A stretch of DNA of 64,000 nt from an uncultured Alphaproteobacteria bacterium (GCA_944390885.1 CALXRP010000003.1:35004-99003); one strand, 5' to 3'; counted from the stretch's first letter, positions 3,347 to 38,022 are shown. Numbers and translations are program-made. Notes: a model not told the origin generated them from the sequence alone.

Positions 3347-5245
3347 TTAGTACCGCGGGCGGGTTTCTATTTCTTTGCCGATTTCACCGTTTGCAATGTA
3401 GTCATCAACACAATTTGCTCCGCGGCAGCGTTTCAGCACCGTGGCATTCCGGCCTTTGGTCAACCCTCTGACCTGCATTGACGGCACGTAGACTTCATCG
3501 ACAATAATCTTAAACGTAATGTAATTAACATTGCCGTACTCATCTATAATATAGACCTTCACATGATAGGTTCCGCCGTCTTTCGGCATCGGCGTTCCGT
3601 AGAACGTCATTGTTTTTTCATCGAAGGTCAGCCAATCCGGCAGCGGGCTGTCATCTATCAATCCGGCTTTAAATGTCAGGTTGCCGCGAGCATTGAGATC
3701 TTTCAGAGCATCTTCCGGAATGGTATAGAGATAATCCTGTCCGGTTTCCAGTTTTTGATCAGGAATGTCTTCCGTTGACAAATTAACCGGCGGACGTTTG
3801 GACGGCACATTCAACAGATACGGACGATTATCCGGCAGAAAATCGCCATCACGCCATTTTTCCAGCGTTGTATGCAGATAAACGGCAATTTTAGACGGTT
3901 TTTCACCCAACATATAATAAGGTAGTGCGTCAAGCCCCAGCGCAGCATAAAGGTTTCCGAGCGAGGCCTGTAGTTCGATATAGGCCTTAGAAGCTTTGAC
4001 CTCATCAGCAATGGCACGCGCGGCCTCCAACAAAGATTTCGAATCGCGGCTGCCCAGTTTTACCGTAATGTCTTCGGCAATGTCTTCCGATACGTTGGCG
4101 ATTTCAATATTAATCTGATAATCTTCCAGCGCCGACATATAAGCAGCCCAGCCGACATACAGCTGGCTTAAGACCAGGTTGGTCATCCGCTGGCGGCGCA
4201 AGGCTTCCAGCTCGCCTTCCCGCGGGTTTCTGACATCTTCAAAAACATGATAGCCGATTTCCTGAGCTTTGCGGCTCCAGACTTTGTTGTAATAGGAAGG
4301 GTTGCTTTGATAATCATTTTGAGTGGTGGATTTGAACTCCTGAATGGTAAACTCCAGGTTCTCGTCAATATTCACCATATCGCGCATTTTGAGTTCCGGG
4401 CGGTTGGTCAGAGCCAGCCATTCCATATCGGCCAGCGGCGTGCGAATATCCGGCAGGGCAAAATTGCCGTACAACTTGCCGACCAGTTTGTATTCCGTTG
4501 CCGGATGAAAACCCATTAAAGCGGCCAGTTTGGTCTCGGCCGTTTCCATTCCGCGTTTTAACTCGGACAAGTTTTTAACGGCTTCCATATATTCGCGCTT
4601 TAACACCAATTTATCTGTCGGCAGATACTGATTTAATTTTGCAAGGTCTTTGGCCTGAGCATTCAGCTCGTCAACCTCCAGCGTTAAGACCTCTATCATA
4701 TCATCAATCACCGGCAGCAGGCGCTGTGCCGTCAGAGCCTGCCAATAAAGCACGCGGGTTTCCTGCAGCAGGTTGTGAATAACTTTGCGGCTCTGCTCAA
4801 AAGCCAGATTTTTGCGGTATTCCTGATCGACGGTCTGATAATAAACCGTACTCATATCCAAAAGGTTCCAGGCCAGCCGGAGCTCGGAATTGGCATCGGA
4901 CAGAGAATCGGGGCTCAGGTATCCGGCCTGCCCCATAATCTCGGGGATTTGGTTGACCGGCGACTTTCCGGCCTTTATCAAACTTTCTTCATAACTGACA
5001 ACGCGGCGGGTAAAGTTATATTTCAAGGCCAGCGCCATTGTCATATACATATCTATCGGCTTTGAGATTTTGCGCGGCTGGTTTAAGTACATATTCTGCA
5101 TATCCACGTCGGCGCGGATTGCGCTGTCCCAATCGGAATAAGTCGCCGATGATACGGTTGTTTCACTAACGGAATATTCTTCGCGCGGGCCGCAAGAAAC
5201 AACAAAAAACATGCCAAAAACCAAACATGCCAATATTTTTTTCAT
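3347..5245 (-). CDS. TolC/NodT-family outer-membrane lipoprotein with C-terminal Ig-like (cadherin-like) domain
   Basis: Signal peptide with lipobox (FFVVSCG). Long coiled-coil-rich body with the two-repeat organisation typical of outer membrane efflux proteins. C-terminal approximately 90 aa (LPDWLTFDEKTMTFYGTPMPKDGGTYHVKVYIIDEYGNVN) resembles putative-Ig/dystroglycan-type domains. Terminator-like hairpin just downstream (about 3320-3345). Confidence 0.5.
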   Translation of the reverse strand: MKKILACLVFGMFFVVSCGPREEYSVSETTVSSATYSDWDSAIRADVDMQNMYLNQPRKISKPIDMYMTMALALKYNFTRRVVSYEESLIKAGKSPVNQIPEIMGQAGYLSPDSLSDANSELRLAWNLLDMSTVYYQTVDQEYRKNLAFEQSRKVIHNLLQETRVLYWQALTAQRLLPVIDDMIEVLTLEVDELNAQAKDLAKLNQYLPTDKLVLKREYMEAVKNLSELKRGMETAETKLAALMGFHPATEYKLVGKLYGNFALPDIRTPLADMEWLALTNRPELKMRDMVNIDENLEFTIQEFKSTTQNDYQSNPSYYNKVWSRKAQEIGYHVFEDVRNPREGELEALRRQRMTNLVLSQLYVGWAAYMSALEDYQINIEIANVSEDIAEDITVKLGSRDSKSLLEAARAIADEVKASKAYIELQASLGNLYAALGLDALPYYMLGEKPSKIAVYLHTTLEKWRDGDFLPDNRPYLLNVPSKRPPVNLSTEDIPDQKLETGQDYLYTIPEDALKDLNARGNLTFKAGLIDDSPLPDWLTFDEKTMTFYGTPMPKDGGTYHVKVYIIDEYGNVNYITFKIIVDEVYVPSMQVRGLTKGRNATVLKRCRGANCVDDYIANGEIGKEIETRPRY

Positions 5246-6348: not shown

Positions 6349-7236
6349 TTGTTATGCATTAACTTAATAAAGGAGCGGAAAATGTTTGATAATCACAATT
6401 CCAATAACGGACAGCGGCCGACGCGCTGTAAATTCGGGTTAAAGTTTACGCCAAAGCCCGTAAATCCCGAACTTTCGGTTCAAGAGAACATAATGAATTT
6501 TATTAACGACTACCGCCAATGGGAAAAAGAAAATCAGCAACCGGATTATTCTCATCTGTCTACCAGAGAGGCGGTAAAGCAGATAGTTGATGATTTTCGC
6601 ACTCAGGAGCGGGAGGAAGAAGAGCAGAAGGCCAGACAGGCACAAATGCAGACGCCGTATGGTTCGGGGCAAACATCTTATGCGCCGGCGCAAAGCTCTT
6701 ACGGGACGCAACAGAATGCGAATATGTCATCGCAAGGAGCTTTCACTCCATCCGGTCAGGCAACATACGGTGCGACGGAACCAAACGGCGCGGCACAACA
6801 AGCTACAAGTTTTTGGGAAAGGTTTCGTACTCCTAAATCTTCTGTTTCAAAAGATTGGGGAAAATTGACAGAACAACATTTAAATGCCCATTTTCTTCAC
6901 GATCCCTATTATCCAGGCATAACTAACACCGGGCTAGTTGCTCCATTTAAAGATTTTATCAGAAACAAAACACAAATGGAGCAGGATGGATACATTGGAA
7001 ATGACAAATATTTTCATTGTAAGGGAAATTATCAGGCTGCTAAAAGAGGAGCTTGGGGAAAAGTTGTTGGCAGAACTTTAAGCTTCTTCAGAGAAGCTCC
7101 ATATGGGATTATAAAAGATGGTTTTCAAGCCAGTGCTGACGATTGGTATGCCAATCGCCAAGGTTGGGAAGGCGCAGCGAAAGGTCTTGACCTTGCTGAC
7201 GCTTGCTCAAGAAATCCTAGAGATTACTATAAATAA
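6349..7236 (+). CDS. Protein with C-terminal serum amyloid A (SAA)-like domain and Q/S/Y/T-rich low-complexity linker
   Basis: C-terminal block [39 protein letters not shown]...[33 protein letters not shown] aligns closely with vertebrate SAA ([23 protein letters not shown]...[20 protein letters not shown]). The central region is a Q/S/T/Y/G-rich linker. No signal peptide. RBS aaaggag 8 nt before the ATG. Confidence 0.65.
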   Translation: [295 protein letters not shown]

Positions 7237-30163: not shown

Positions 30164-30238
30164 GCCGCTATAGCTCAGTGGTAGAGCACACCCTTGGTAA
30201 GGGTGGGGTCGTAAGTCCGATTCTTACTAGCGGCACCA
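30164..30238 (+). tRNA. tRNA-Thr (anticodon GGU)
   Basis: 75-nt cloverleaf. Acceptor gccgcta/tagcggc, D-arm gctc-agtggta-gagc, anticodon stem caccc/gggtg with loop ttGGTaa, T-arm gtaag-tccgatt-cttac, discriminator A, encoded CCA. Confidence 0.85.
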
Positions 30239-30961
30239 TTTATCAGTTTCTGGCGTTTTTAGTAGTTCATCGAATGGCTTAACTATTGAAAACGCTATAT
30301 TTTTTCCTTCAGTTTTGCAGTCCGATAATATTAATTTCAAAATGTCTCTTTTTTCAGAAATAATCGGACTTTTTAAGAATTTTCCTACATTTGCAGCTAT
30401 TTCCGCGATATTTGCTAGTATTTCATCAGTTTCAGCATCAATCTCAAGGTATTTATCCATATCTTTTTGTAGTTTTTCTTTTTCCATTTCAATTTCAGTT
30501 TTTAATTCATTATACATTTTTTCATCGCATTTGCCTCTCATATAGCCACGAAACAAGGTTTTGAGCTGTTCATCTAATTGATTTATCTTGAGAGTAATAT
30601 CACGTTTGAGAGTCGCTGTATTTACTCTTTCTTCTTTAAGCTGCTTTTTGACTTCGGCTTTAATATTTTTTAGCATATCGTCACTAACGGCAAGAGGTAA
30701 CGACAATTCTTTTTCAAGCTGGGCGAGGATTTTGGCTTCATTTAATGGTTTCTGACTGCATTTTGAACGTAATTTGTTGCATTTGAGATAATTATAAGAG
30801 TGTTTGTCATCTTTTACTTTGGTTTCACAAGTCATCAAGCTGCCGCAACAACCACATCTGACTAAACCGGTAACCTTCTTTCCGGCATAATCTTTCAACC
30901 CGTCCCATATAATCGGCAGAGGTGCTTGCGCTGTAATTATTTTCCAAAAGCCAGTTTTCAA
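30227..30961 (-). pseudogene. C-terminal remnant of a large serine recombinase (zinc-ribbon and coiled-coil region); no catalytic resolvase domain
   Basis: CGCCGSLMTCETKVKDDKHSYNYLKCNKLRSKCSQK resembles a recombinase zinc-beta-ribbon, followed by a long coiled coil (EQLKTLFRGYMRGKCDEKMYNELKTEIEMEKEKLQKDMDKYLE). There is no N-terminal catalytic Ser domain. Its 3' end overlaps the tRNA-Thr 3' end by 12 nt. Confidence 0.5.
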
Positions 30962-31404
30962 AATTCTTTAACATCTCAAATCTCCTTTATACCAAATTAG
31001 CCAATCAATACCGGTTCAGAAAACACAGCCACCATAACCCGCTGCAATCTTTTACACTCAGCCATGCAATCGCTAAAATATTGATAAGGTGTTGGAAGAA
31101 TTGTGTCATTAAGTTTTACATACCACATAGTTTTTTCCTTTCATAAATAGTGTTTTGCTCATTAACTATTTATATTATGCGGTATATTTTCCCATCCGCG
31201 AGCCCCTAAAACGCTAGTTGCCAACGACATTTTGCTACGATTTGGACGGGATTACTAAGGAACGGACAAAAATCCTTTAACTTTTCGGTAAATCAGAAAA
31301 GAAGTTTTGTATAAATGATGTTTTTGATGTGATATATTAATTTGTCCAAGCCTGAAATAAAAGTACTAAAACAAAAATTTCAATATTAAGGACTATGTAT
31401 TCCT

Positions 31405-32397
31405 CTATATTAAATCTGCATAAGGCAATGATTTGATATAGTCTTCCATATATTGCCAATCAGGATCACCCTTTTGCGTTATTGGCAAACGAATAGTCTC
31501 ATTACAAAATTTATTATAAAAAGCTTTTCTGCCAAATTGAAATTTATACTTATTTTTCTTCATAATTGTTGTTATAAACAATGCATTATATTTATTTAGT
31601 TTCTCGTTATGGAAACAGTATATTTCATCTGATGCTGTAAATTCATTTTCTACATAAAAAGCAGATGCAAATGTATTATATACTATGCAATTTTTTTCTA
31701 TAAAAAGAGGATTGCTAATCTGATCTGTTTGGCTATTGTTAAATTCGGAAGCTGAATAATAATCAATATCGCCACTAATTCGATCTTCAGCAATTAATCG
31801 TTGCCCATGTGTTATTCGTGTCCATAGTTTTTTATCTATAAAGGAAAATTCGCCCCATTTTTTTATATCTTTATAGCAAGTTGATATGTTTAAAGTTTCA
31901 ATAGGATTAAATTTTACATTTTTTGTTATATTATTTGTATAATTCTCCATATAATTCCAATCAGGAGCATTGTTTTTATCTACAGGAAGAAGGATATTTT
32001 CTCTTTCCAATCTACTATTACTTATCTCTCTTCCAAAATTATACTTATAACGTATTTTTTCAAAAACTGGCTTAAGATATAGAGCTATATTTTTTGTTAA
32101 CATTCTACCTTTAGGCCAAAAAACCGTAACATGATCGGATGCTATAAAATTATAATTATGATAAAAAAGATATCCGACACTACCACTATTGCTAATTGTT
32201 AAGCAATTATTATAGACAATTACTTTAGCTCCTTTTTTTGTTGTTAAAGGGGGTGCTACATAGTCATTAATGCCATTATTATCTTTAGAGGAAGAAACAT
32301 AAGGAATATCTCCTATAATATGCTCATCTTCTGTAAAGCGAACACCTCTTTTATAATCAAAAACCTCAGAAAAAGGAAAATATTTAAATTGCTTCAT
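31405..32397 (-). CDS. Restriction-modification specificity subunit with two tandem target-recognition domains (BcgIB-like)
   Basis: 330 aa. Two homologous halves each end ...FGR...LP....G.PDWxYMExY (NFGREISNSRLERENILLPVDKNNAPDWNYMENY and QFGRKAFYNKFCNETIRLPITQKGDPDWQYMEDY). 14-nt overlap with the upstream methylase-nuclease gene. Very AT-rich. Confidence 0.5.
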   Translation of the reverse strand: MKQFKYFPFSEVFDYKRGVRFTEDEHIIGDIPYVSSSKDNNGINDYVAPPLTTKKGAKVIVYNNCLTISNSGSVGYLFYHNYNFIASDHVTVFWPKGRMLTKNIALYLKPVFEKIRYKYNFGREISNSRLERENILLPVDKNNAPDWNYMENYTNNITKNVKFNPIETLNISTCYKDIKKWGEFSFIDKKLWTRITHGQRLIAEDRISGDIDYYSASEFNNSQTDQISNPLFIEKNCIVYNTFASAFYVENEFTASDEIYCFHNEKLNKYNALFITTIMKKNKYKFQFGRKAFYNKFCNETIRLPITQKGDPDWQYMEDYIKSLPYADLI

Positions 32398-34345
32398 TTT
32401 TATTTTCCTTATAATATGCGCTCAGAATATCAAGCATTTCGGCCTCTGACTTTTCTTCAAATAATATACCGATGTCTTTTTTAGCCTCAAATATCATATA
32501 TTCACGCACAGAATTAATAAAATCCTGTTCAGATAAATTAGAATAATCTGTTTTACTATGTGCATAAATAGTCCACTCATCTTTGGGTTTGATTTTTGTT
32601 TTTACATATATGATATCATCTGGTTTTTCACCATTATTTGTTCCTCTTATTATAGATAATAATTTTTTTTCAATGCTATTCCATTTATTGTAGATATCTG
32701 TTCTGCCTTTATTTTTAGCAAGAACAAAGCCATCGTCTCGCAAATCATAAAAAATTACTTCATCATTATTATAATCAAATGCCCTATTGGTTTCAAAAAT
32801 AGCTATAGCTGTATGAGTAGAAGCATTTGGTTGGAATAAATCCTTTGGCATATTTATTACTGCTTTTAATGTATGTTTTTTTAAGATGTTATCACGAATA
32901 GCTTCATCTTTAAAATACATACTTAGAGGAGCAATAACTATCCCATAACGAGAACAATTATCTAATAACTTTGTTAAAAATGTTATTTCCTTCGGTGTTG
33001 GATCTTCTTTATTTTCCTTGCCGCTGTAAGGAGGATTAATAAAACCAATAGTAGCTTTAAATTCATCTAGCTTTTCTTGTGCTCTACAATCTTTTATCGA
33101 ATCATAATTGTAAATAGATGATTTTCCATCGCCTCTAAACATCATACTTGATATAGCACATATATACATAGTAGGATTTATTTCAAAGCCAAGTAACTGT
33201 GTCTGTTTTACATTAGCAATGGCTTCTTGTTTATCTGTTCTATTGCTTTTTTCAATTTTATTTATAATAGCATTCATCCCAGCAATCAAAAAAGCTCCTG
33301 TTCCACAACATAAATCTACTATTTTATCATTTTCTTTCAAATCGATTAGTTTAGTGAAAAGGGTTGTAATATGGCGAGGAGTCAAAACAATACCTTTTTT
33401 TACATTAGAAACACCTGCATATTTTAAAAATTCTTCATAAAACCTTCCAATAATATCATAATTTGAAGATTTAGCAAAATTACCAGTAAGTAAAGGAATA
33501 ACATTATTTTTTAGTTCATCCAGAATCTGTTTTAAAATATCACTTGTTCTTAATGTAACATCCGTTTTCAAAAATGCTAATTCAGTATCTAATACTTCTA
33601 GCTTTTCAGCCGGAATTCCTTCGTTTTTTAAAACACGAGGAGCTTGAAGTAAGATATTATCCGCTAATGTGGTTGTATCCATAGTGCTATAAGTTGCGGA
33701 GAAAGATCCTGTATTTTTATTATGAAGACATATCATCAAAGCAGACAATAAAATTGGTCTTTTTTGCGAATCTATAGATCTAAGAAGATTATTTATTTTT
33801 TTACTTGAGGAACTTATTTTTGTAACAGCCTCTTCTTCATTCAAACTATTGAATAAAGCTAAAAAAGAGTCTTTATTTACAAAATTCGTAATCTGAGGAA
33901 CAGAAATAATCTTTTGCTCTCTATTGTCTAGCATAAAACAACTAAATTTATATTGATATTCTTTTAATAAATCCCCACTTACAGCAATACCTAAAATTCT
34001 CCATGATTTAAAAACATTTTTTTGAGAATTGTCTAAATTATTTTCTTGAAAACGACTTAAATACCATTTAATGCCACTTACAGCACCCTTTTCTATATCT
34101 TCTAAATCATGTTCTTTCATTGTGGGCTTTTCTTCAACAAGAATAAGCAGCTTATTCTTTCCATCGCAATAAATTCTATCCGGATAACCTTCACGCCCTG
34201 TTTGTCTCTTTGATGAGCAAGATAAAACTTTCTTAATATCATCAGTTAATTTGCTTTTAGAATCATCCCAATCCGCAACATTATATCCTAAATTCTGCAA
34301 AACAGTTGTAACAGATGGTGTTATATTCTTATCTTTCCTTGCCAT
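32384..34345 (-). CDS. Fused PD-ExK nuclease plus gamma-class N6-adenine DNA methyltransferase (BcgIA-like Type IIB R-M subunit)
   Basis: 653 aa. Putative PD-ExK near the N-terminus (YPDRIYCDGKNKLLILVEEKP). SAM motif I VDLCCGTGAFL precedes catalytic motif IV FINPPYSG, the gamma-class order. No hsdR in the vicinity. Size and gene order match BcgIA (637 aa)/BcgIB (341 aa). Confidence 0.6.
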   Translation of the reverse strand: MARKDKNITPSVTTVLQNLGYNVADWDDSKSKLTDDIKKVLSCSSKRQTGREGYPDRIYCDGKNKLLILVEEKPTMKEHDLEDIEKGAVSGIKWYLSRFQENNLDNSQKNVFKSWRILGIAVSGDLLKEYQYKFSCFMLDNREQKIISVPQITNFVNKDSFLALFNSLNEEEAVTKISSSSKKINNLLRSIDSQKRPILLSALMICLHNKNTGSFSATYSTMDTTTLADNILLQAPRVLKNEGIPAEKLEVLDTELAFLKTDVTLRTSDILKQILDELKNNVIPLLTGNFAKSSNYDIIGRFYEEFLKYAGVSNVKKGIVLTPRHITTLFTKLIDLKENDKIVDLCCGTGAFLIAGMNAIINKIEKSNRTDKQEAIANVKQTQLLGFEINPTMYICAISSMMFRGDGKSSIYNYDSIKDCRAQEKLDEFKATIGFINPPYSGKENKEDPTPKEITFLTKLLDNCSRYGIVIAPLSMYFKDEAIRDNILKKHTLKAVINMPKDLFQPNASTHTAIAIFETNRAFDYNNDEVIFYDLRDDGFVLAKNKGRTDIYNKWNSIEKKLLSIIRGTNNGEKPDDIIYVKTKIKPKDEWTIYAHSKTDYSNLSEQDFINSVREYMIFEAKKDIGILFEEKSEAEMLDILSAYYKENKNEAI

Positions 34346-34479
34346 AATATTTCCCCGTATAACTATATTTTTATAGTTATACTAATTTTTACACAATAAT
34401 ATAAAAATTTAGTTAATATTAACATTAATTTAATCTTTAGCCATTAACGACATCAAACAACGACTCGTTAAAAAGCTCA

Positions 34480-34590
34480 ACTTTTCTTATTAACCGCTTA
34501 AATTCATCATAATTTTCAGTCCGATAACTGCACAGTATCGCGCACCATTTATTGAAATTCCGCATCTATTGCGGATTTTTTGTTTTTAAA
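34480..34590. repeat. Cassette-flanking repeat, copy 1 (between the R-M genes and GNAT)
   Basis: cttttcttattaaccgcttaaattcatcataattttcagtccgataactgcacag...ttccgcatctattgcggatttttt. It ends in a hairpin plus T-run (ccgcatctattgcgg tttttt). Confidence 0.5.
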
Positions 34591-34764
34591 CAAAAGATTA
34601 TTTAGTCCGATTTTTGAGGTTTTGAAAAGAGCAATTTTGATAAATTGATATGAAATTTCAATTTTATTAGTAATTGATTATTAAGGGAAGGCTTGCAAAA
34701 TAGATCTTATTTGCTAGACTTAAATTATTCTGTTTTTTAATTAGGACTTATTGGGAAAATAGAC

Positions 34765-35301
34765 ATGGAATTAAATTCTGAATATTTAACAGAAAGATTA
34801 GAAATTAGGATTTTAGAAGCTCATTTTGATCTTGCTAAAAAATTGCTCAATTATGTTAAAAAGAATCAAGAGCATTTTTATTTTATGTATGGTTTTGTTG
34901 ATTATGATTCTGTGGAGGAAATGTATGATTTTCTAAAAAGAAGAAAGTTAACAAATAATCCTTTTTATGGTCTTTTTTTGAAAGGATCGGATGAATTAAT
35001 CGGTTCTATTTCAATGACCGGATATGATAAAAAAAACGGCAAAGCTGAAATTGGATATACATTGGATAAAAATTTTGTTCATCAAGGTTATATGACTGAA
35101 GCTGTTACTTTTTTTGCAGAAGAGGTGATGCGTCAGGGATGTCGCAAGTTGATTGCATATATTGATATTGAAAATGTAGATAGTCAAAAAGTTTGTGAAA
35201 GATGTGGATTTATTAAAGAGGCTAGGTTAATTAAAGAAAAATTTGATCGACATAAGAGTGAATTTGTTGATATTTGTCTTTATTGTAAGTTTGCCTCTTA
35301 A
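34765..35301 (+). CDS. GNAT-family N-acetyltransferase (RimJ/RimL-like)
   Basis: 178 aa. LEIRILEAHFDLAKKLLNYV..., motif A region IGSISMTGYDKKNGKAEIGYTLDKNFVHQGYMTEAVTFF, then RQGCRKLIAYIDIENVDSQKVCERCGF. Confidence 0.75.
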   Translation: MELNSEYLTERLEIRILEAHFDLAKKLLNYVKKNQEHFYFMYGFVDYDSVEEMYDFLKRRKLTNNPFYGLFLKGSDELIGSISMTGYDKKNGKAEIGYTLDKNFVHQGYMTEAVTFFAEEVMRQGCRKLIAYIDIENVDSQKVCERCGFIKEARLIKEKFDRHKSEFVDICLYCKFAS

Positions 35302-35329
35302 TAAACTCTCATAGCAAATTTTGCTTAAG

Positions 35330-35392
35330 AGGATTCATTTTCATATTCACCAGTCCCGATAACTGCACAGAAAAAGTGCAGCATTTAACACA
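35330..35392. repeat. Cassette-flanking repeat, copy 2 (short form)
   Basis: cagtcccgataactgcacagaaaaagtgcagcatttaacac shares the core with copies 1 and 3. Contains a perfect hairpin ctgcac-agaaaaa-gtgcag. Confidence 0.45.
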
Positions 35393-35427
35393 AAACCTTC
35401 TGATAGGGGGCTGATGTTGGAACGGAC

Positions 35428-36036
35428 TTATAATAGTTTGTGAATATCATATTCATCATAGCCTTCATAATAATAACTGACATTAATGCCTTTCATAAAG
35501 ATTTCTCGTTCATCAATTTTATCTGTCAGAGCATTTTTTAGGAGATGTTTTATTTCAATATCTTTAACAGGGCTTCTTTCCATTGCTGATAAATAATCTT
35601 CTTTATCAATTTTATTCCAATCAACAACTTTTTTAATTTCTTTCTTAAAGATTAAATCCAGCCAAATTCTTGTTGCGCGGCCGTTTCCTTCCCGGAAAGG
35701 ATGGGCAATATTCATTTCAACATATTTTTCAACAATTTCATCAAAAGTTGATTGAGGCATTTTATCTATATGTTTTAGGGCTTGCTCCAAATACATCACC
35801 GGAGCAAATCTGAAGTTGCCTTTTGATATGTTAACATCACGCATTTTTCCGGCAAAACCATAAATGTCTTCAAACAAATACTTATGAATCTGTTTTAATC
35901 CGGCAAATGTGCCTACTTTTATCTGATTGATTTTGCCACTATCAAAAAACTTTTTAGCCTTTTCTTTACTGAGTTTTTCTTCAATCTTATTCAATTCAAT
36001 TTGATTGGTAATATTCAATTTATTTTCTAAAACCAT
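35428..36036 (-). CDS. Class III Fic-family AMPylator (Fic motif plus C-terminal auto-inhibitory helix)
   Basis: Fic motif [12 protein letters not shown] (HxFx[DE]GNGRxxR). C-terminal [12 protein letters not shown] contains the [ST]xxxE[GN] inhibitory motif (S-YYY-E-G). About 200 aa, like the self-contained NmFic type. The start is likely an internal Met (MVLENK); the track starts at 36048. Confidence 0.75.
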
Positions 36037-36162
36037 TATAAAAATCATCTTTCATAAAAAATGCATTATATTTTGATAATAATATAAAATTGCTAAAATT
36101 TACATAATAAAATCAAATTGCCAACACTTCAGATTGTTGTTCCAAGCTATCTTCCAATGACT

Positions 36163-36270
36163 CCATTTTCTTGTTAATTGTTTAAGTTCATCATAAAATT
36201 CAGTCTGATAAACTACACAGCAAAAGCACAGCATTTTTTAAGATTTCCGCATTTATTACAGATTATTTGA
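36163..36270. repeat. Cassette-flanking repeat, copy 3
   Basis: ttttcttgttaattgtttaagttcatcataaaattcagtctgataaactacacagcaaaagcacagcattttttaagatttccgcatttattacagattatttg is about 80% identical to copy 1 over about 100 nt. ORF 36275..36514 next to it is probably spurious. Confidence 0.5.
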
Positions 36271-36516
36271 CTTTTTGATGTTTTTTAAGAACTCTGTAAA
36301 ATCTTTCGTTTGCTCAGGAGTAACATTTTTGTTTTCATATTTTTCCGGCGGGAAAAAGTATGTCCCTTGGGTCGGTTCCGGTCTAAATTACCTAAATAAA
36401 CGGACTTTTTATCATCCAACAGCAACATTTTGTGCTCAGTATTCTTTTTTTGCTTTTAATTTTTATATAATAAATTTATGCTGTGGGCATGGTCTTAACA
36501 ATTACGGAGGATAATT

Positions 36517-37341
36517 ATGACAAAAAGCGTGAAAAACAACGGCCTTTACACGGCCTCGCTTATTGACAGATTTTTTAGCTGGCTGAAAAAAACCGCTTAT
36601 AATAATTTTTTGGAAACAAACGAAAAATGGTTTACCAAAATTGGTTTGACATTGATGTATTTTATTGCCGTGATGTCTTTGCTGGTTGCTATTGTTTTTG
36701 TTTTGAAATATAATGCGTTAAGCACTTTTTATGTTTTGACTGCCGGAATCTGCGGCGTGTTTATTACAATTGTTTTTCAATATATTGCCGCCAAAACAAT
36801 TCCCTGCCTTAATACGTTGATCCATAATACGCCGGCAAAATTCTCTTCAACCGCCGTTTTAGAAGTTTTGGCCTTGGCTGCCGGGATTTGCGGTGTTATT
36901 GCCCTGATCGGCGGGCTGATCCTATCAATCAAAGCCAGCAGTCTTTACTTCTTTATTTCCGGTATTGCCATTTTTGTTATTTGTGAATACTGGATGGCCA
37001 TGGCTATGAAACCGGAGTTGCTCAATATTGAAATTGTAAAAAACATTTCTGCCGGAGAAGAATTTATCGGCTTATTGACATTTTTTGCCAAAGGTTCTTT
37101 GAAAATTATTCCGGTAATTTTCTGCGGCTGCATGATTTTTGCCGCTTATGACCTGATTGCCATGATGTTTGTTAAATATAATTATATCGGGGAAATTAAT
37201 CTGGAGGCCGGAATCGTTGCTTATGCAATGTGCGGTGCCCTGCTTCCGCTGTTTGGATATGTTTCATTCCTCGGTTATTATTTCACAATTGACATTGCAC
37301 GGGCAATTCTTTCAATCCCGGCAAAGCTGGATAAAAAATAA
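36517..37341 (+). CDS. Polytopic membrane protein, hypothetical
   Basis: 274 aa with RBS ggagg, 6-7 hydrophobic helices and a bidirectional terminator after it. Confidence 0.4.
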   Translation: MTKSVKNNGLYTASLIDRFFSWLKKTAYNNFLETNEKWFTKIGLTLMYFIAVMSLLVAIVFVLKYNALSTFYVLTAGICGVFITIVFQYIAAKTIPCLNTLIHNTPAKFSSTAVLEVLALAAGICGVIALIGGLILSIKASSLYFFISGIAIFVICEYWMAMAMKPELLNIEIVKNISAGEEFIGLLTFFAKGSLKIIPVIFCGCMIFAAYDLIAMMFVKYNYIGEINLEAGIVAYAMCGALLPLFGYVSFLGYYFTIDIARAILSIPAKLDKK

Positions 37342-37349
37342 TCATCCGG

Positions 37350-37387
37350 CACGAAATAAAAAAACTGTCCCGATTGTTTGGGACAGT
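37350..37387. terminator. Bidirectional rho-independent terminator
   Basis: aaaaaaactgtcccgattgtttgggacagtttttttt: an 8-bp stem flanked by A- and T-runs. Confidence 0.5.
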
Positions 37388-37392
37388 TTTTT

Positions 37393-37908
37393 TTATTTAT
37401 ACCCCGGCGCTTCCGCTTGAGCGATGGTTTCATAAATATTTTCCACATCCTTCAGGCTCATGCCCTTTTCACAACGGGCGGAAAAATATCCCGATTCAGC
37501 ACCAAAATACATTACATAAATCCAGTCATTGTCCTTTTTTAAGGTAACCGGTACACAATCGTGTAAGAGAATTTCCTCACACAACGGATAACTGCCATAG
37601 TCGCCGCTGATGTCTCCGCCATTGATCTCGCTTCCACATTTTCGAACAACAACTTCTCTGTTGCCGTCCAAGAAATAAGTAACTTCAATCATATTATTCA
37701 TTGCCCGGACGGAATATTCAGAAAGTTTTAACGGAAACGTAAAGCCTGCTTTTTGAGCCGCACAACCCAAATCTTTTCCACATTCAACCCACGGATTGGG
37801 AATGCCATACGGGGATTTGATGTTTTTTCCGGGACTACAACAGACACATGCCAAGCAAGCTGCTCCCAGCAACAAAAAATTTCCGGCTTTTACAATAATC
37901 TTTTTCAT
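37393..37908 (-). CDS. Secreted or lipoprotein, hypothetical
   Basis: Start at ATG 37906-37908 gives MKKIIVKAGNFLLLGAACLACVCCSPGK, a signal peptide with a possible lipobox. The track extension to 37995 is unlikely. Confidence 0.35.
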   Translation of the reverse strand: MKKIIVKAGNFLLLGAACLACVCCSPGKNIKSPYGIPNPWVECGKDLGCAAQKAGFTFPLKLSEYSVRAMNNMIEVTYFLDGNREVVVRKCGSEINGGDISGDYGSYPLCEEILLHDCVPVTLKKDNDWIYVMYFGAESGYFSARCEKGMSLKDVENIYETIAQAEAPGYK

Positions 37909-38022
37909 ATGAAGCTGTTTTATAATGTTAATAAAAAAATTACCATAATCATATTTTATCGTTTCTATCGATATCACCAAAAAATATTTTTTCAAGCAAA
38001 ATCCGGCGCAGCGGCTGAATTT

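Follow-up and report, generated by a model that had tools for sequence, protein, structure and literature searches.

A stack of small mobile units at a tRNA-Thr gene of an uncultured alphaproteobacterium, the newest a broken serine-recombinase element with a restriction enzyme

The window analysed in this study is a 64,000-nucleotide (nt) stretch of DNA from an uncultured Alphaproteobacteria bacterium (GCA_944390885.1 CALXRP010000003.1:35004-99003), and the subject is the genomic island that it holds at the 3′ end of a tRNA-Thr(GGU) gene. The tRNA gene (positions 30164–30238, + strand) is the integration target and contains the left half of the attB site. The G+C content of the 1-kb bins from 30 to 37 kb is 0.342, 0.299, 0.285, 0.290, 0.276, 0.320, and 0.333, compared with 0.40–0.50 on both sides (about 0.45), which bears out the AT-rich segment 3′ of the tRNA reported in a preliminary description of this DNA. 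The location at the tRNA was correctly given there, but the end was set at 36270, while the strain-variable region spans 30239–36427 (~6.2 kb) and its distal edge lies at approximately 36427, including a filler segment at 36360–36427. From the tRNA outward, the island contains a remnant of a large serine recombinase (LSR), the two genes of a restriction-modification (R-M) system, a GNAT acetyltransferase gene, a Fic gene, and the 3′ end of an ankyrin-repeat gene. The island is a stack of small mobile units, and the newest of them is a broken serine-recombinase element with a restriction enzyme.

Comparator contigs from other samples (L001–L014) were found by exact-protein look-ups. Nine of them (L004 and L007–L014) are from the same species as the window, with flanks that are 96–99% identical. 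The gene sets between the tRNA and the 274-amino-acid (aa) gene just past the island differ among these strains: L012 has only the Fic and GNAT genes, L008 has an S51 peptidase gene in addition, and L007, L009–L011, L013, and L014 add ankyrin-repeat, DUF4379, NERD, HNH, or other genes, while L004 has the same arrangement as the window. The integration of an island at this tRNA, as proposed in the preliminary description, is thus supported by strains of the same species that lack the genes or carry others in their place. Contigs L001–L006 are assigned to a related species, which has its own tRNA-Thr(GGU) (89% identical to that of the window) with an array also anchored there. They had been considered as a second array in the same genome, and this was rejected because they come from the related species and their tRNA-Thr(GGU) lies in a different neighbourhood. 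Two of them (L002 14671–21504 and L006 6274–13107) have a block with a 579-aa tyrosine integrase (DUF6538 and Phage_integrase), Mrr, a small resolvase, and a KAP NTPase; therefore, other element types also use or invade this tRNA-Thr island.

The boundaries of the newest unit were given by strain L012, in which the junction is uninterrupted. Relative to L012, the window contains an insertion of exactly 30244–34541, and the two ends have in common only the 11-nt sequence GCACCATTTAT, at 30233–30243 and 34542–34552 (both + strand). The left copy is made up of the 3′ end of the tRNA and the next 5 nt. The right copy lies in a region (34480–34590, + strand) that contains, in order, a P arm (34480–34541) with the octamer AGTCCGAT as a P-box (34518–34525), the core, and the hairpin of the displaced tRNA terminator (34559–34575), followed by a T-run. 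The sequence past 34552 is that of the tRNA terminator in L012, and the hairpin at 34559–34575 was the only terminator-like site found in a scan of the island. On this comparison, the 11-nt pair is assigned as the cores of attL and attR of an integrated element, which spans 30239–34552. A second copy of the tRNA end had been predicted at 36–38 kb; a copy does exist, but it is located at 34.5 kb and has only 11 nt. A search of the window with the 18-nt tRNA end, allowing up to 3 mismatches, matched only the tRNA itself because the true repeat is this short.

The gene adjoining the tRNA is a 244-aa open reading frame (ORF) on the minus strand (30227–30961). In agreement with the preliminary description, its coding end overlaps the tRNA by 12 nt, and the C-terminus reads ...KWCR*. 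The sole Pfam match is Zn_ribbon_recom (PF13408, E = 1.1e-08), and there are weak NCBIfam matches to the C-terminal halves of CcrB (E = 2e-4, 20 bits with a cutoff of 900) and XisF. The zinc ribbon and coiled coil are retained, while the N-terminal resolvase catalytic domain with the serine nucleophile and the Recombinase domain are not present in the window copy, having been deleted. The description as a 244-aa remnant without a catalytic domain is right in its domains and needs correction in its length, as the recombinase contributes only the C-terminal ~214 codons (30230–30871, − strand; zinc ribbon, coiled coil, and tail). The ~30 codons before these come from the start of an 85-aa gene of the element backbone, read out of frame. 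The deletion junction (30871/30880) and the first ~32 codons of this 85-aa gene (MLKNFENWLLE...) occupy 30872–30974 (− strand), and a 43-aa ORF at 30997–31128 (− strand) stands at the place of a 47-aa backbone ORF and moves with the R-M module. The window holds an LSR remnant and no functional member of the family.

Recombinase homology of the ORF was confirmed by its identity of 79–93% to intact LSRs of 514–548 aa that adjoin the same tRNA. The first search with the remnant listed truncated or mosaic proteins of 134–418 aa, but the idea of a lineage surviving only as fragments was abandoned when a near-full-length relative used as the query found dozens of intact 514–548-aa proteins with Resolvase, Recombinase, and Zn_ribbon domains (80–94% identity). 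Intact relatives carry the motif ..FARVSSEEQ.., as in L140 (514 aa), L137 (545 aa), and L015 (503 aa). In the proteins P0129, P0131, P0135, P0136, P0138, and P0143, the C-terminal remnant of the recombinase is fused to fragments of cargo (Fic, DpnII, N6_N4 methylase, NERD, and C5 methylase); deletions from cargo to recombinase are therefore common, and the tRNA-proximal ~200 codons tend to survive.

Contig L140 shows the intact type of the window element, with tRNA-Thr, LSR (514 aa), ORFs of 60, 264, and 85 aa, the R-M specificity (S) and A genes, P arm, and core in this order. The window aligns with L140 in three blocks (30164–30871, 30880–31465, and 31916–34646), and has lost 3,448 bp from codon ~300 of the recombinase to codon ~32 of the 85-aa gene. 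The alignment identifies the newest unit as a deletion derivative of a ~7.8-kb LSR element with a BcgI-like R-M pair. A decayed integrative defence island had been suggested from the window, and L140, as the intact progenitor type, specifies what has decayed. The backbone recurs in L015, L137, and L140 and comprises ORFs of 47, 85, and 54/60 aa and a protein of ~200 aa. The 85-aa ORF has a weak, sub-threshold likeness to integrase SAM-like DNA-binding domains. The ~200-aa protein (L137 2879–3487, − strand; L015 8208–8558, − strand) matches REP_ORF2-G2P with 28.1 bits (cutoff 27.8), a family of rolling-circle replication initiators, and the excised circle may be able to replicate.

The recombinase ORF has three length classes that differ in where it ends. 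The 514-aa class stops inside the tRNA (e.g. L140), the 526-aa class reads further into the tRNA (e.g. L138 and L139), and the class of 540–548 aa reads into the P arm. In several relatives, the ORF goes on after ...TDKWC with AILCSYRTxxYxxFKRLIRK, the peptide that is encoded on the minus strand by the 60-nt arm of the repeat described below; therefore, the LSR gene reads across attP. The residues KWC are encoded by AAATGGTGC, the reverse complement of GCACCATTT. The only precedent known to us for a recombinase ORF that spans attP and has its C-terminus altered by integration is the tyrosine integrase of myxophage Mx8. Two LSR elements stand in tandem at the tRNA in L015. In L137, a contig of 8,570 nt, the first 20 nt are repeated just before a terminal G-run, and closure to a circle of 8,545 bp gives a 335-aa ORF that is continuous over the join. 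The P arm, core, and P′ arm with the recombinase 3′ end are contiguous in this contig, the 545-aa LSR reads across them, and a tRNA is absent. The simplest reading is that L137 is probably an excised circle.

The cargo of the newest unit is an R-M pair on the minus strand. The specificity subunit (330 aa, 31405–32397) has two target recognition domains (TRDs), with Methylase_S matching in two stretches, and was assigned by PADLOC as a "Type II specificity subunit" (E = 6.7e-31). The A subunit (653 aa, 32384–34345) has an N-terminal PD..EEK nuclease motif followed by an N6_Mtase domain with NPPY. The residues P55-D56...E71-E72-K73 and N437-P-P-Y are invariant in 25 homologues, the PADLOC profile REase_MTase covers residues 37–630, and HsdM structures were matched by the methyltransferase half. 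Pfam gave no nuclease family for the N-terminal 290 aa, even at E ≤ 10, and the R-M unit has no helicase or HsdR ORF. These features define a BcgI-like Type IIB architecture, as earlier proposed, and cleavage is predicted on either side of a bipartite site. The likeness to BcgI consists of two subunits, the fusion of an N-terminal PD-(D/E)XK nuclease with an NPPY N6-adenine methyltransferase, a partner with two TRDs, and the lack of a separate HsdR. The BcgI subunits are ~640–650 aa (A) and ~330–340 aa (B). No source names the window pair BcgI.

The R-M genes in L001–L006 have 99.2% nucleotide identity to those of the window in a different neighbourhood, while the nearest relatives of the A subunit outside the clade are 64–70% identical and come from records of Bacteroidales, Prevotellaceae, and Endomicrobium. 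In L140, this R-M system stands behind an intact backbone, and its A subunit is 95% identical. The region 31466–31915 of the specificity gene cannot be aligned with the L140 element, which is otherwise 77–88% identical, and this suggests that one TRD differs and that the specificity of a single type of mobile unit was swapped. The insertion of the R-M unit was recent, and the unit is non-autonomous.

Beyond attR lie two older units without a recombinase gene. The first contains a GNAT acetyltransferase gene (34765–35301, + strand), for which the best matches were Acetyltransf_3 and the RimL equivalog (below the cutoff), and has at its tRNA-proximal end the left 37 nt of a dyad described below (34604–34640). 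The second contains a class III (NmFic-like) Fic AMP-transferase gene (35428–36048, − strand), which scored 318 bits with the NmFic equivalog NF046029 (cutoff 230) and satisfies HxFx(D/E)GNGRxxR as well as the C-terminal inhibitory helix (S/T)xxxE(G/N), present as SYYYEG. It shares the equivalog score, the Fic motif, and the SxxxEG auto-inhibitory motif with NmFic of Neisseria meningitidis, and differs in its setting, as an old cassette among stacked mobile elements. In PADLOC, the Fic family is no more than a candidate defence gene (PDC-S04). The preliminary description counted both genes as toxin-type enzymes; both are present, but the label is unsupported for the GNAT, which is RimL/RimJ-like and not of the TacT/AtaT type known from type II toxin-antitoxin pairs, has no adjacent antitoxin partner (the neighbouring small ORFs are read-throughs of the repeats), and has no PADLOC match. 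The Fic gene occurs in all strains and in the arrays of six other species with 84–91% nucleotide identity, and is for this reason an old resident; its unit is the oldest of the three. The last gene is the 3′ remnant of an ankyrin-repeat gene (36262–36359, − strand) that is intact (556–557 aa) in L009, L010, and L014.

The units are separated by a ~110-nt repeat that occurs three times in the window by profile, at 34480–34590 (E = 1.6e-26), 35321–35412 (E = 1.7e-14), and 36165–36274 (E = 1.4e-19). On the + strand, the repeat has a conserved arm of ~60 nt ending in CAGTCCGATAACTGCACAG, the core GCACCATT(T), a hairpin, and a T-run; the sequence of the hairpin varies between copies while its structure is kept. 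The first copy is the attR of the newest unit. The second (+ strand) has a P arm and a degenerate core GTGCAGCATTT (35376–35386) with no hairpin, and the third (+ strand) has a P arm, a degenerate core CACAGCATTT (36227–36236), and a decayed hairpin. Because of these degenerate cores, the damaged arms on the side of the tRNA, the missing or partial dyad, and the lack of a recombinase, the GNAT and Fic units are read as probably fixed, immobile fossils. The profile found 69 copies in the window and L001–L014, all co-oriented with the tRNA and with at least one at each inter-unit boundary, and the tRNA 3′ half with its terminator is itself a partial copy (model positions 36–113, E ~1e-10). The repeats that had been noted around the GNAT and Fic genes are real, but they are att scars composed of a recombinase-side arm, a tRNA-end core, and a displaced terminator, and are not generic repeats. 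Minus-strand ORFs of 42 and 44 aa in the repeats, once considered as antitoxins or leader peptides, are read-throughs of the P arm, i.e. of the recombinase tail.

The octamer AGTCCGAT is also present in the T-loop of the tRNA (30214–30221), with 11 nt between it and the core. The 64 kb contain 6 copies, and a DNA-uptake sequence or a repetitive extragenic palindrome-like element was discarded because 5 of them lie in the tRNA and island. Over ~50 loci, the spacer between the octamer and the core is 11 nt in the tRNA (20 of 20) and 16 nt in the P arms (21 of 22). In serine integrases, a 7–9-bp motif of the zinc ribbon domain is located at positions 16–24 in attP and at 11–19 in attB (PMC3783163). 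The offset of 11 versus 16 nt in the left half-sites equals this 5-bp shift and is suggestive of serine integrase sites. If the serine-integrase rule applies, the central dinucleotide would be the GC that begins the core; this placement is only suggestive because no matching right half-sites were found. Contigs L001 (reverse complement, ~14830–14630) and L064 (oriented, ~3830–4127) of a related species have a GC-rich non-coding insert of ~190–230 nt after the tRNA terminator, which ends with a second copy of the last 16 nt of the tRNA (CTTGCCAGCGGCACCA). It resembles a miniature unit whose arm is of the tRNA type and not of the P type.

Comparisons between species placed the exchange points at the core. 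Where one cassette is replaced by another in L001 and L002, both breakpoints are at the core. In an all-against-all comparison, segments with ≥95% identity between species end +1 to +11 nt from the core; they include the R-M module and the pairs L020/L048, L093/L115, and L016/L020. A 1,785-nt HNH unit without a recombinase is shared by L011 and L064 with 99.8% identity, and both of its ends are in GCACCATT. These core breakpoints indicate that the exchange is site-specific, also for units that lack a recombinase.

A second conserved feature of the units is a 52-bp dyad, AGTCCGAT-N36-ATCGGACT, which is referred to here as the S dyad and was found at the tRNA-proximal end of units in ~50 related loci. 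Of 143 pattern matches counted over both strands, 127 have a spacer of exactly 36 nt, and an N26 "attB-type" version was not present. The dyad starts 62 or 64 nt past the core in hairpin-type units. In recombinase-bearing units, it starts 86 nt past the core and is embedded in the recombinase codons LSDC..KSPI, as in the newest unit of the window (30319–30370). In the GNAT unit, the right half is absent and the left 37 nt remain, and the Fic unit has no dyad. Among 44 distinct non-coding copies, conservation extends to the octamers and some internal T/A runs, while the remainder has diverged, so the dyad is under selection as DNA. Although its size is that of a serine-integrase attP, a role as the crossover site was rejected because the breakpoints of window/L012, L001/L002, and L011/L064 are at the core and the centre of the dyad is not conserved. 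Our best guess is that the recombinase or a backbone protein binds the dyad as an accessory site.

Taken together, we consider it very probable that the island is an accretion array at the tRNA-Thr(GGU) 3′ end built by a family of small LSR integrative elements. The canonical element is ~7.8–8.5 kb and contains, from the tRNA outward, the LSR, backbone ORFs (54/60 aa, a rolling-circle-Rep-like gene, 85 aa, and 47 aa), cargo that is usually R-M, and the ~60-nt P arm. The recombinase, as the presumed catalyst, would join the end of the tRNA to attP, which consists of P arm, core, and P′ arm, by a crossover inside GCACCATT(T), most likely at the first GC by the geometry of the left arms. As the LSR frame spans attP, integration would swap its last ~30 codons for a stop in the tRNA, giving 545 aa in the circular or tandem state and 514 or 526 aa in the integrated state. 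New units would enter at the tRNA and displace older ones outward, and each entry would leave a scar of P arm, core, and the former downstream sequence, often the tRNA terminator hairpin. The window holds three units (R-M, GNAT, and Fic) followed by the deleted ankyrin gene. Having lost 3,448 bp with both att ends intact, the R-M unit is non-autonomous but possibly mobilisable in trans. The sequences directly show the anatomy and homologies of the units, the polymorphism among strains, the breakpoints at the core, and the geometry of the att sites, from which catalysis by this recombinase, the crossover dinucleotide, mobilisation in trans, and a defence role of the cargo are deduced. It appears to be a decayed member of an apparently undescribed and still-active family of serine-recombinase cassettes.

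Several observations weigh against this accretion model. All comparators are short-read metagenome assemblies, in which repeats can seed chimeric joins; the recurrence of the window arrangement in L004 and of the L001 type in five samples argues against chimeras without excluding them. Recombination was deduced from assembled sequence and was not observed, and no recombination directionality factor was identified. The right half-sites (P′ and hairpins) have no convincing inverted octamer at the expected distance, and a canonical symmetric LSR site of 40–50 bp is therefore not evident. In the species of the window, the GNAT, 200-aa, and 126-aa units share the hairpin and the left half of the S dyad and diverge only at position ~37 of the dyad. 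Exchange at the core explains this less well than homologous recombination or a second crossover point would. The Fic gene of other species borders on a truncated P box that lacks a core, and deletion therefore has a part in shaping the arrays, too. On the side of the tRNA, the R-M module likewise ends in a deletion junction without a core in both of its contexts. Homologous recombination and deletion clearly contribute to the arrays as well.

A stronger form of the accretion model can be offered tentatively, as a possibility that we rate somewhat below an even chance. The tRNA-Thr 3′ end would be a permanent entry site of a gene-cassette platform, in which units without a recombinase (hairpin, S dyad, cargo, and P arm) are excised, circularised, and reinserted in trans by the recombinase of a co-resident or newly arriving element. 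The S dyad would be an accessory recombinase-binding site that enables both the reuse of an occupied site and the movement of non-autonomous units.

Homologous recombination by itself might also maintain a hypervariable locus of the "minimal mobile element" kind, acting on DNA acquired from other strains through the flanks or the ~110–190-nt repeats, with no present need for a site-specific enzyme, and leaving the recombinase remnants as incidental fossils. A ComF/GntX competence gene lies 3 kb away, the repeats (75–98% identical) are adequate substrates, many junctions are plain deletions, and the divergence inside the dyad rather than at the core, mentioned above, is what such exchange would give. 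The interspecies breakpoints, however, fall within the 11-nt core window and are not spread over the 60-nt P arm, and the ends of the window/L012 indel share only 11 nt. Intact recombinases, tandem elements, and a probable circle exist, and the motif offset of 11 versus 16 nt is a signature of serine integrases. As the sole mechanism, homologous recombination is accordingly unlikely.

The 3′ ends of tRNA genes are the usual targets of tyrosine integrases (PMC4383910), and the serine recombinase could in principle be a passenger in a classical tyrosine-integrase island with a copy of the tRNA 3′ end in attP. The Phage_integrase gene inside the L002/L006 array and the 16-nt tRNA-end duplication around the small insert in L001/L064 would agree with this. 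A tyrosine integrase is nevertheless absent from the window and most arrays, the serine recombinase gene always adjoins the core and its ORF reads across attP, and the identity block is only 9–11 nt with a fixed 5-nt offset between P arm and tRNA; we regard this explanation as very improbable. Still less credit is given to an integron-like array (a cluster of attC sites lacking integron integrases, CALIN), in which the repeats would be attC sites folded as single strands for an IntI-type integrase: single-gene cassettes are indeed parted by co-oriented repeats with a structure-conserved and sequence-variable hairpin, but there is no IntI, the repeats lack the R′′/L′′-L′/R′ organisation and the GTTRRRY core, the hairpin with its T-run is the terminator of the tRNA, the 5′ box of the repeat is the coding tail of a serine recombinase, and the cassettes are in both orientations. 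Equally negligible is the absence of any island, with native low-GC genes and strain differences created by assembly of repeat-containing metagenomic contigs, since the independent sample L004 has the window arrangement, the alternative arrangements recur over samples and assemblers, the R-M A subunit has its closest extra-clade relatives in Bacteroidales and Endomicrobium, and the R-M module is nearly identical in a species whose tRNA is far less so.

The accretion array resembles several known systems. In the staphylococcal cassette chromosome (SCC), composite islands are formed by tandem, defence-rich cassettes that often lack ccr and are mobilised by the Ccr serine recombinases (PMC11470126). 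The likeness to SCC/SCCmec includes LSR insertion at the 3′ end of one housekeeping gene, tandem units with short direct repeats that contain the target end, many units without a recombinase, cargo rich in restriction and defence genes, and CcrB as the best, though weak, NCBIfam match of the remnant. The differences are the target (a tRNA gene here, rlmH (orfX) in SCC), the single recombinase in place of a CcrA/B pair or CcrC, the small units (1–8 kb, often one gene), the recombinase ORF that spans attP, the 52-bp dyad, and the host, a clade of uncultured gut Alphaproteobacteria. The locus works like SCC and yet is not a member of it, as the target is not rlmH and the similarity to CcrB is remote.

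Tycheposons of Prochlorococcus are likewise small cargo elements that stack at tRNA genes, where newcomers push older ones outward and leave degraded integrases. They leave partial tRNAs in the island, some carry replication genes, and 910 of 937 use tyrosine recombinases (bioRxiv 10.1101/2020.12.28.424599). In contrast, the recombinase here is of the serine type, the scars are more than partial tRNAs, as they have a 5-nt offset and an arm coding for the recombinase tail, and restriction and, putatively, defence make up most of the cargo in place of nutrient uptake. With the phage serine integrases (A118/LI, Bxb1, and phiC31), the intact LSRs share resolvase, recombinase, zinc ribbon, and coiled coil regions, and the sites share the 5-bp inward motif shift in attB. 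The phage sites are quasi-symmetric and 40–50 bp long, while here only left half-sites show the motif and the conserved att region is ~190 bp. The tandem reuse of an occupied site would also not be predicted from strictly unidirectional attP × attB chemistry. Compared with SCC and tycheposons, the new features are a tRNA-targeting serine recombinase, an ORF that spans attP, a ~190-bp att region with the S dyad, and the exchange of single-gene units at the core. The literature that was searched contained no description of this element family.

The distribution of the arrays was surveyed by a pattern scan of species-representative genomes, in which true repeats were judged by profile. Among the 120 loci listed, 49 are true arrays, in at least 49 species-level assemblies, and the others are chance matches. 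The repeats are co-oriented with tRNA-Thr(GGU) wherever a tRNA-Thr is within the 8-kb locus (23 of 49). The hosts of the 49 arrays listed are uncultured Alphaproteobacteria and assemblies named Azospirillum-like, "proteobacterium", or "bacterium", from human gut, rumen, and termite gut. Viral contigs in IMG/VR contained no relatives of the recombinase, and a plasmid collection matched the island only over the tRNA.

Defence genes cluster in hotspots, yet their movement is understood for few systems. Here, the vehicle appears to be a compact serine-recombinase element that brings R-M and other accessory genes to one tRNA gene. It is present in dozens of uncultured Alphaproteobacteria of the gut, which form a clade without genetics, and the limits of its units are visible at nucleotide resolution. 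The natural recombinase, for which attP and attB are predicted, is a possible tool for genome engineering; the predicted attB overlaps the T-arm and acceptor end of the tRNA. Single-gene units without a recombinase that are swapped between species at the core extend the "tandem cassette" idea of SCC beyond staphylococci, and the strongly constrained 52-bp dyad may report a new accessory-site requirement in serine recombination. If the cassette-platform reading is true, the system would be a functional analogue of integrons, with a different chemistry and a tRNA gene as its anchor. What follows for the window itself is more limited, namely a recently inserted R-M unit next to GNAT and Fic genes that are old residents.

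Two further regions of the window were recorded. Just past the island, 36517–37995 (G+C content of 0.33–0.39) encodes the 274-aa protein, which is a membrane protein, and a 200-aa putative lipoprotein; neither has a Pfam or NCBIfam match, and both are kept in all ten strains. Elsewhere in the window, a low-G+C stretch at 7–9 kb (~0.35) contains two ORFs with no Pfam match. It is adjoined by a 295-aa ORF (6349–7236, + strand), of which residues 201–277 match the Pfam family Serum amyloid A (PF00277, E = 1.6e-13, 51 bits with a cutoff of 30.8).

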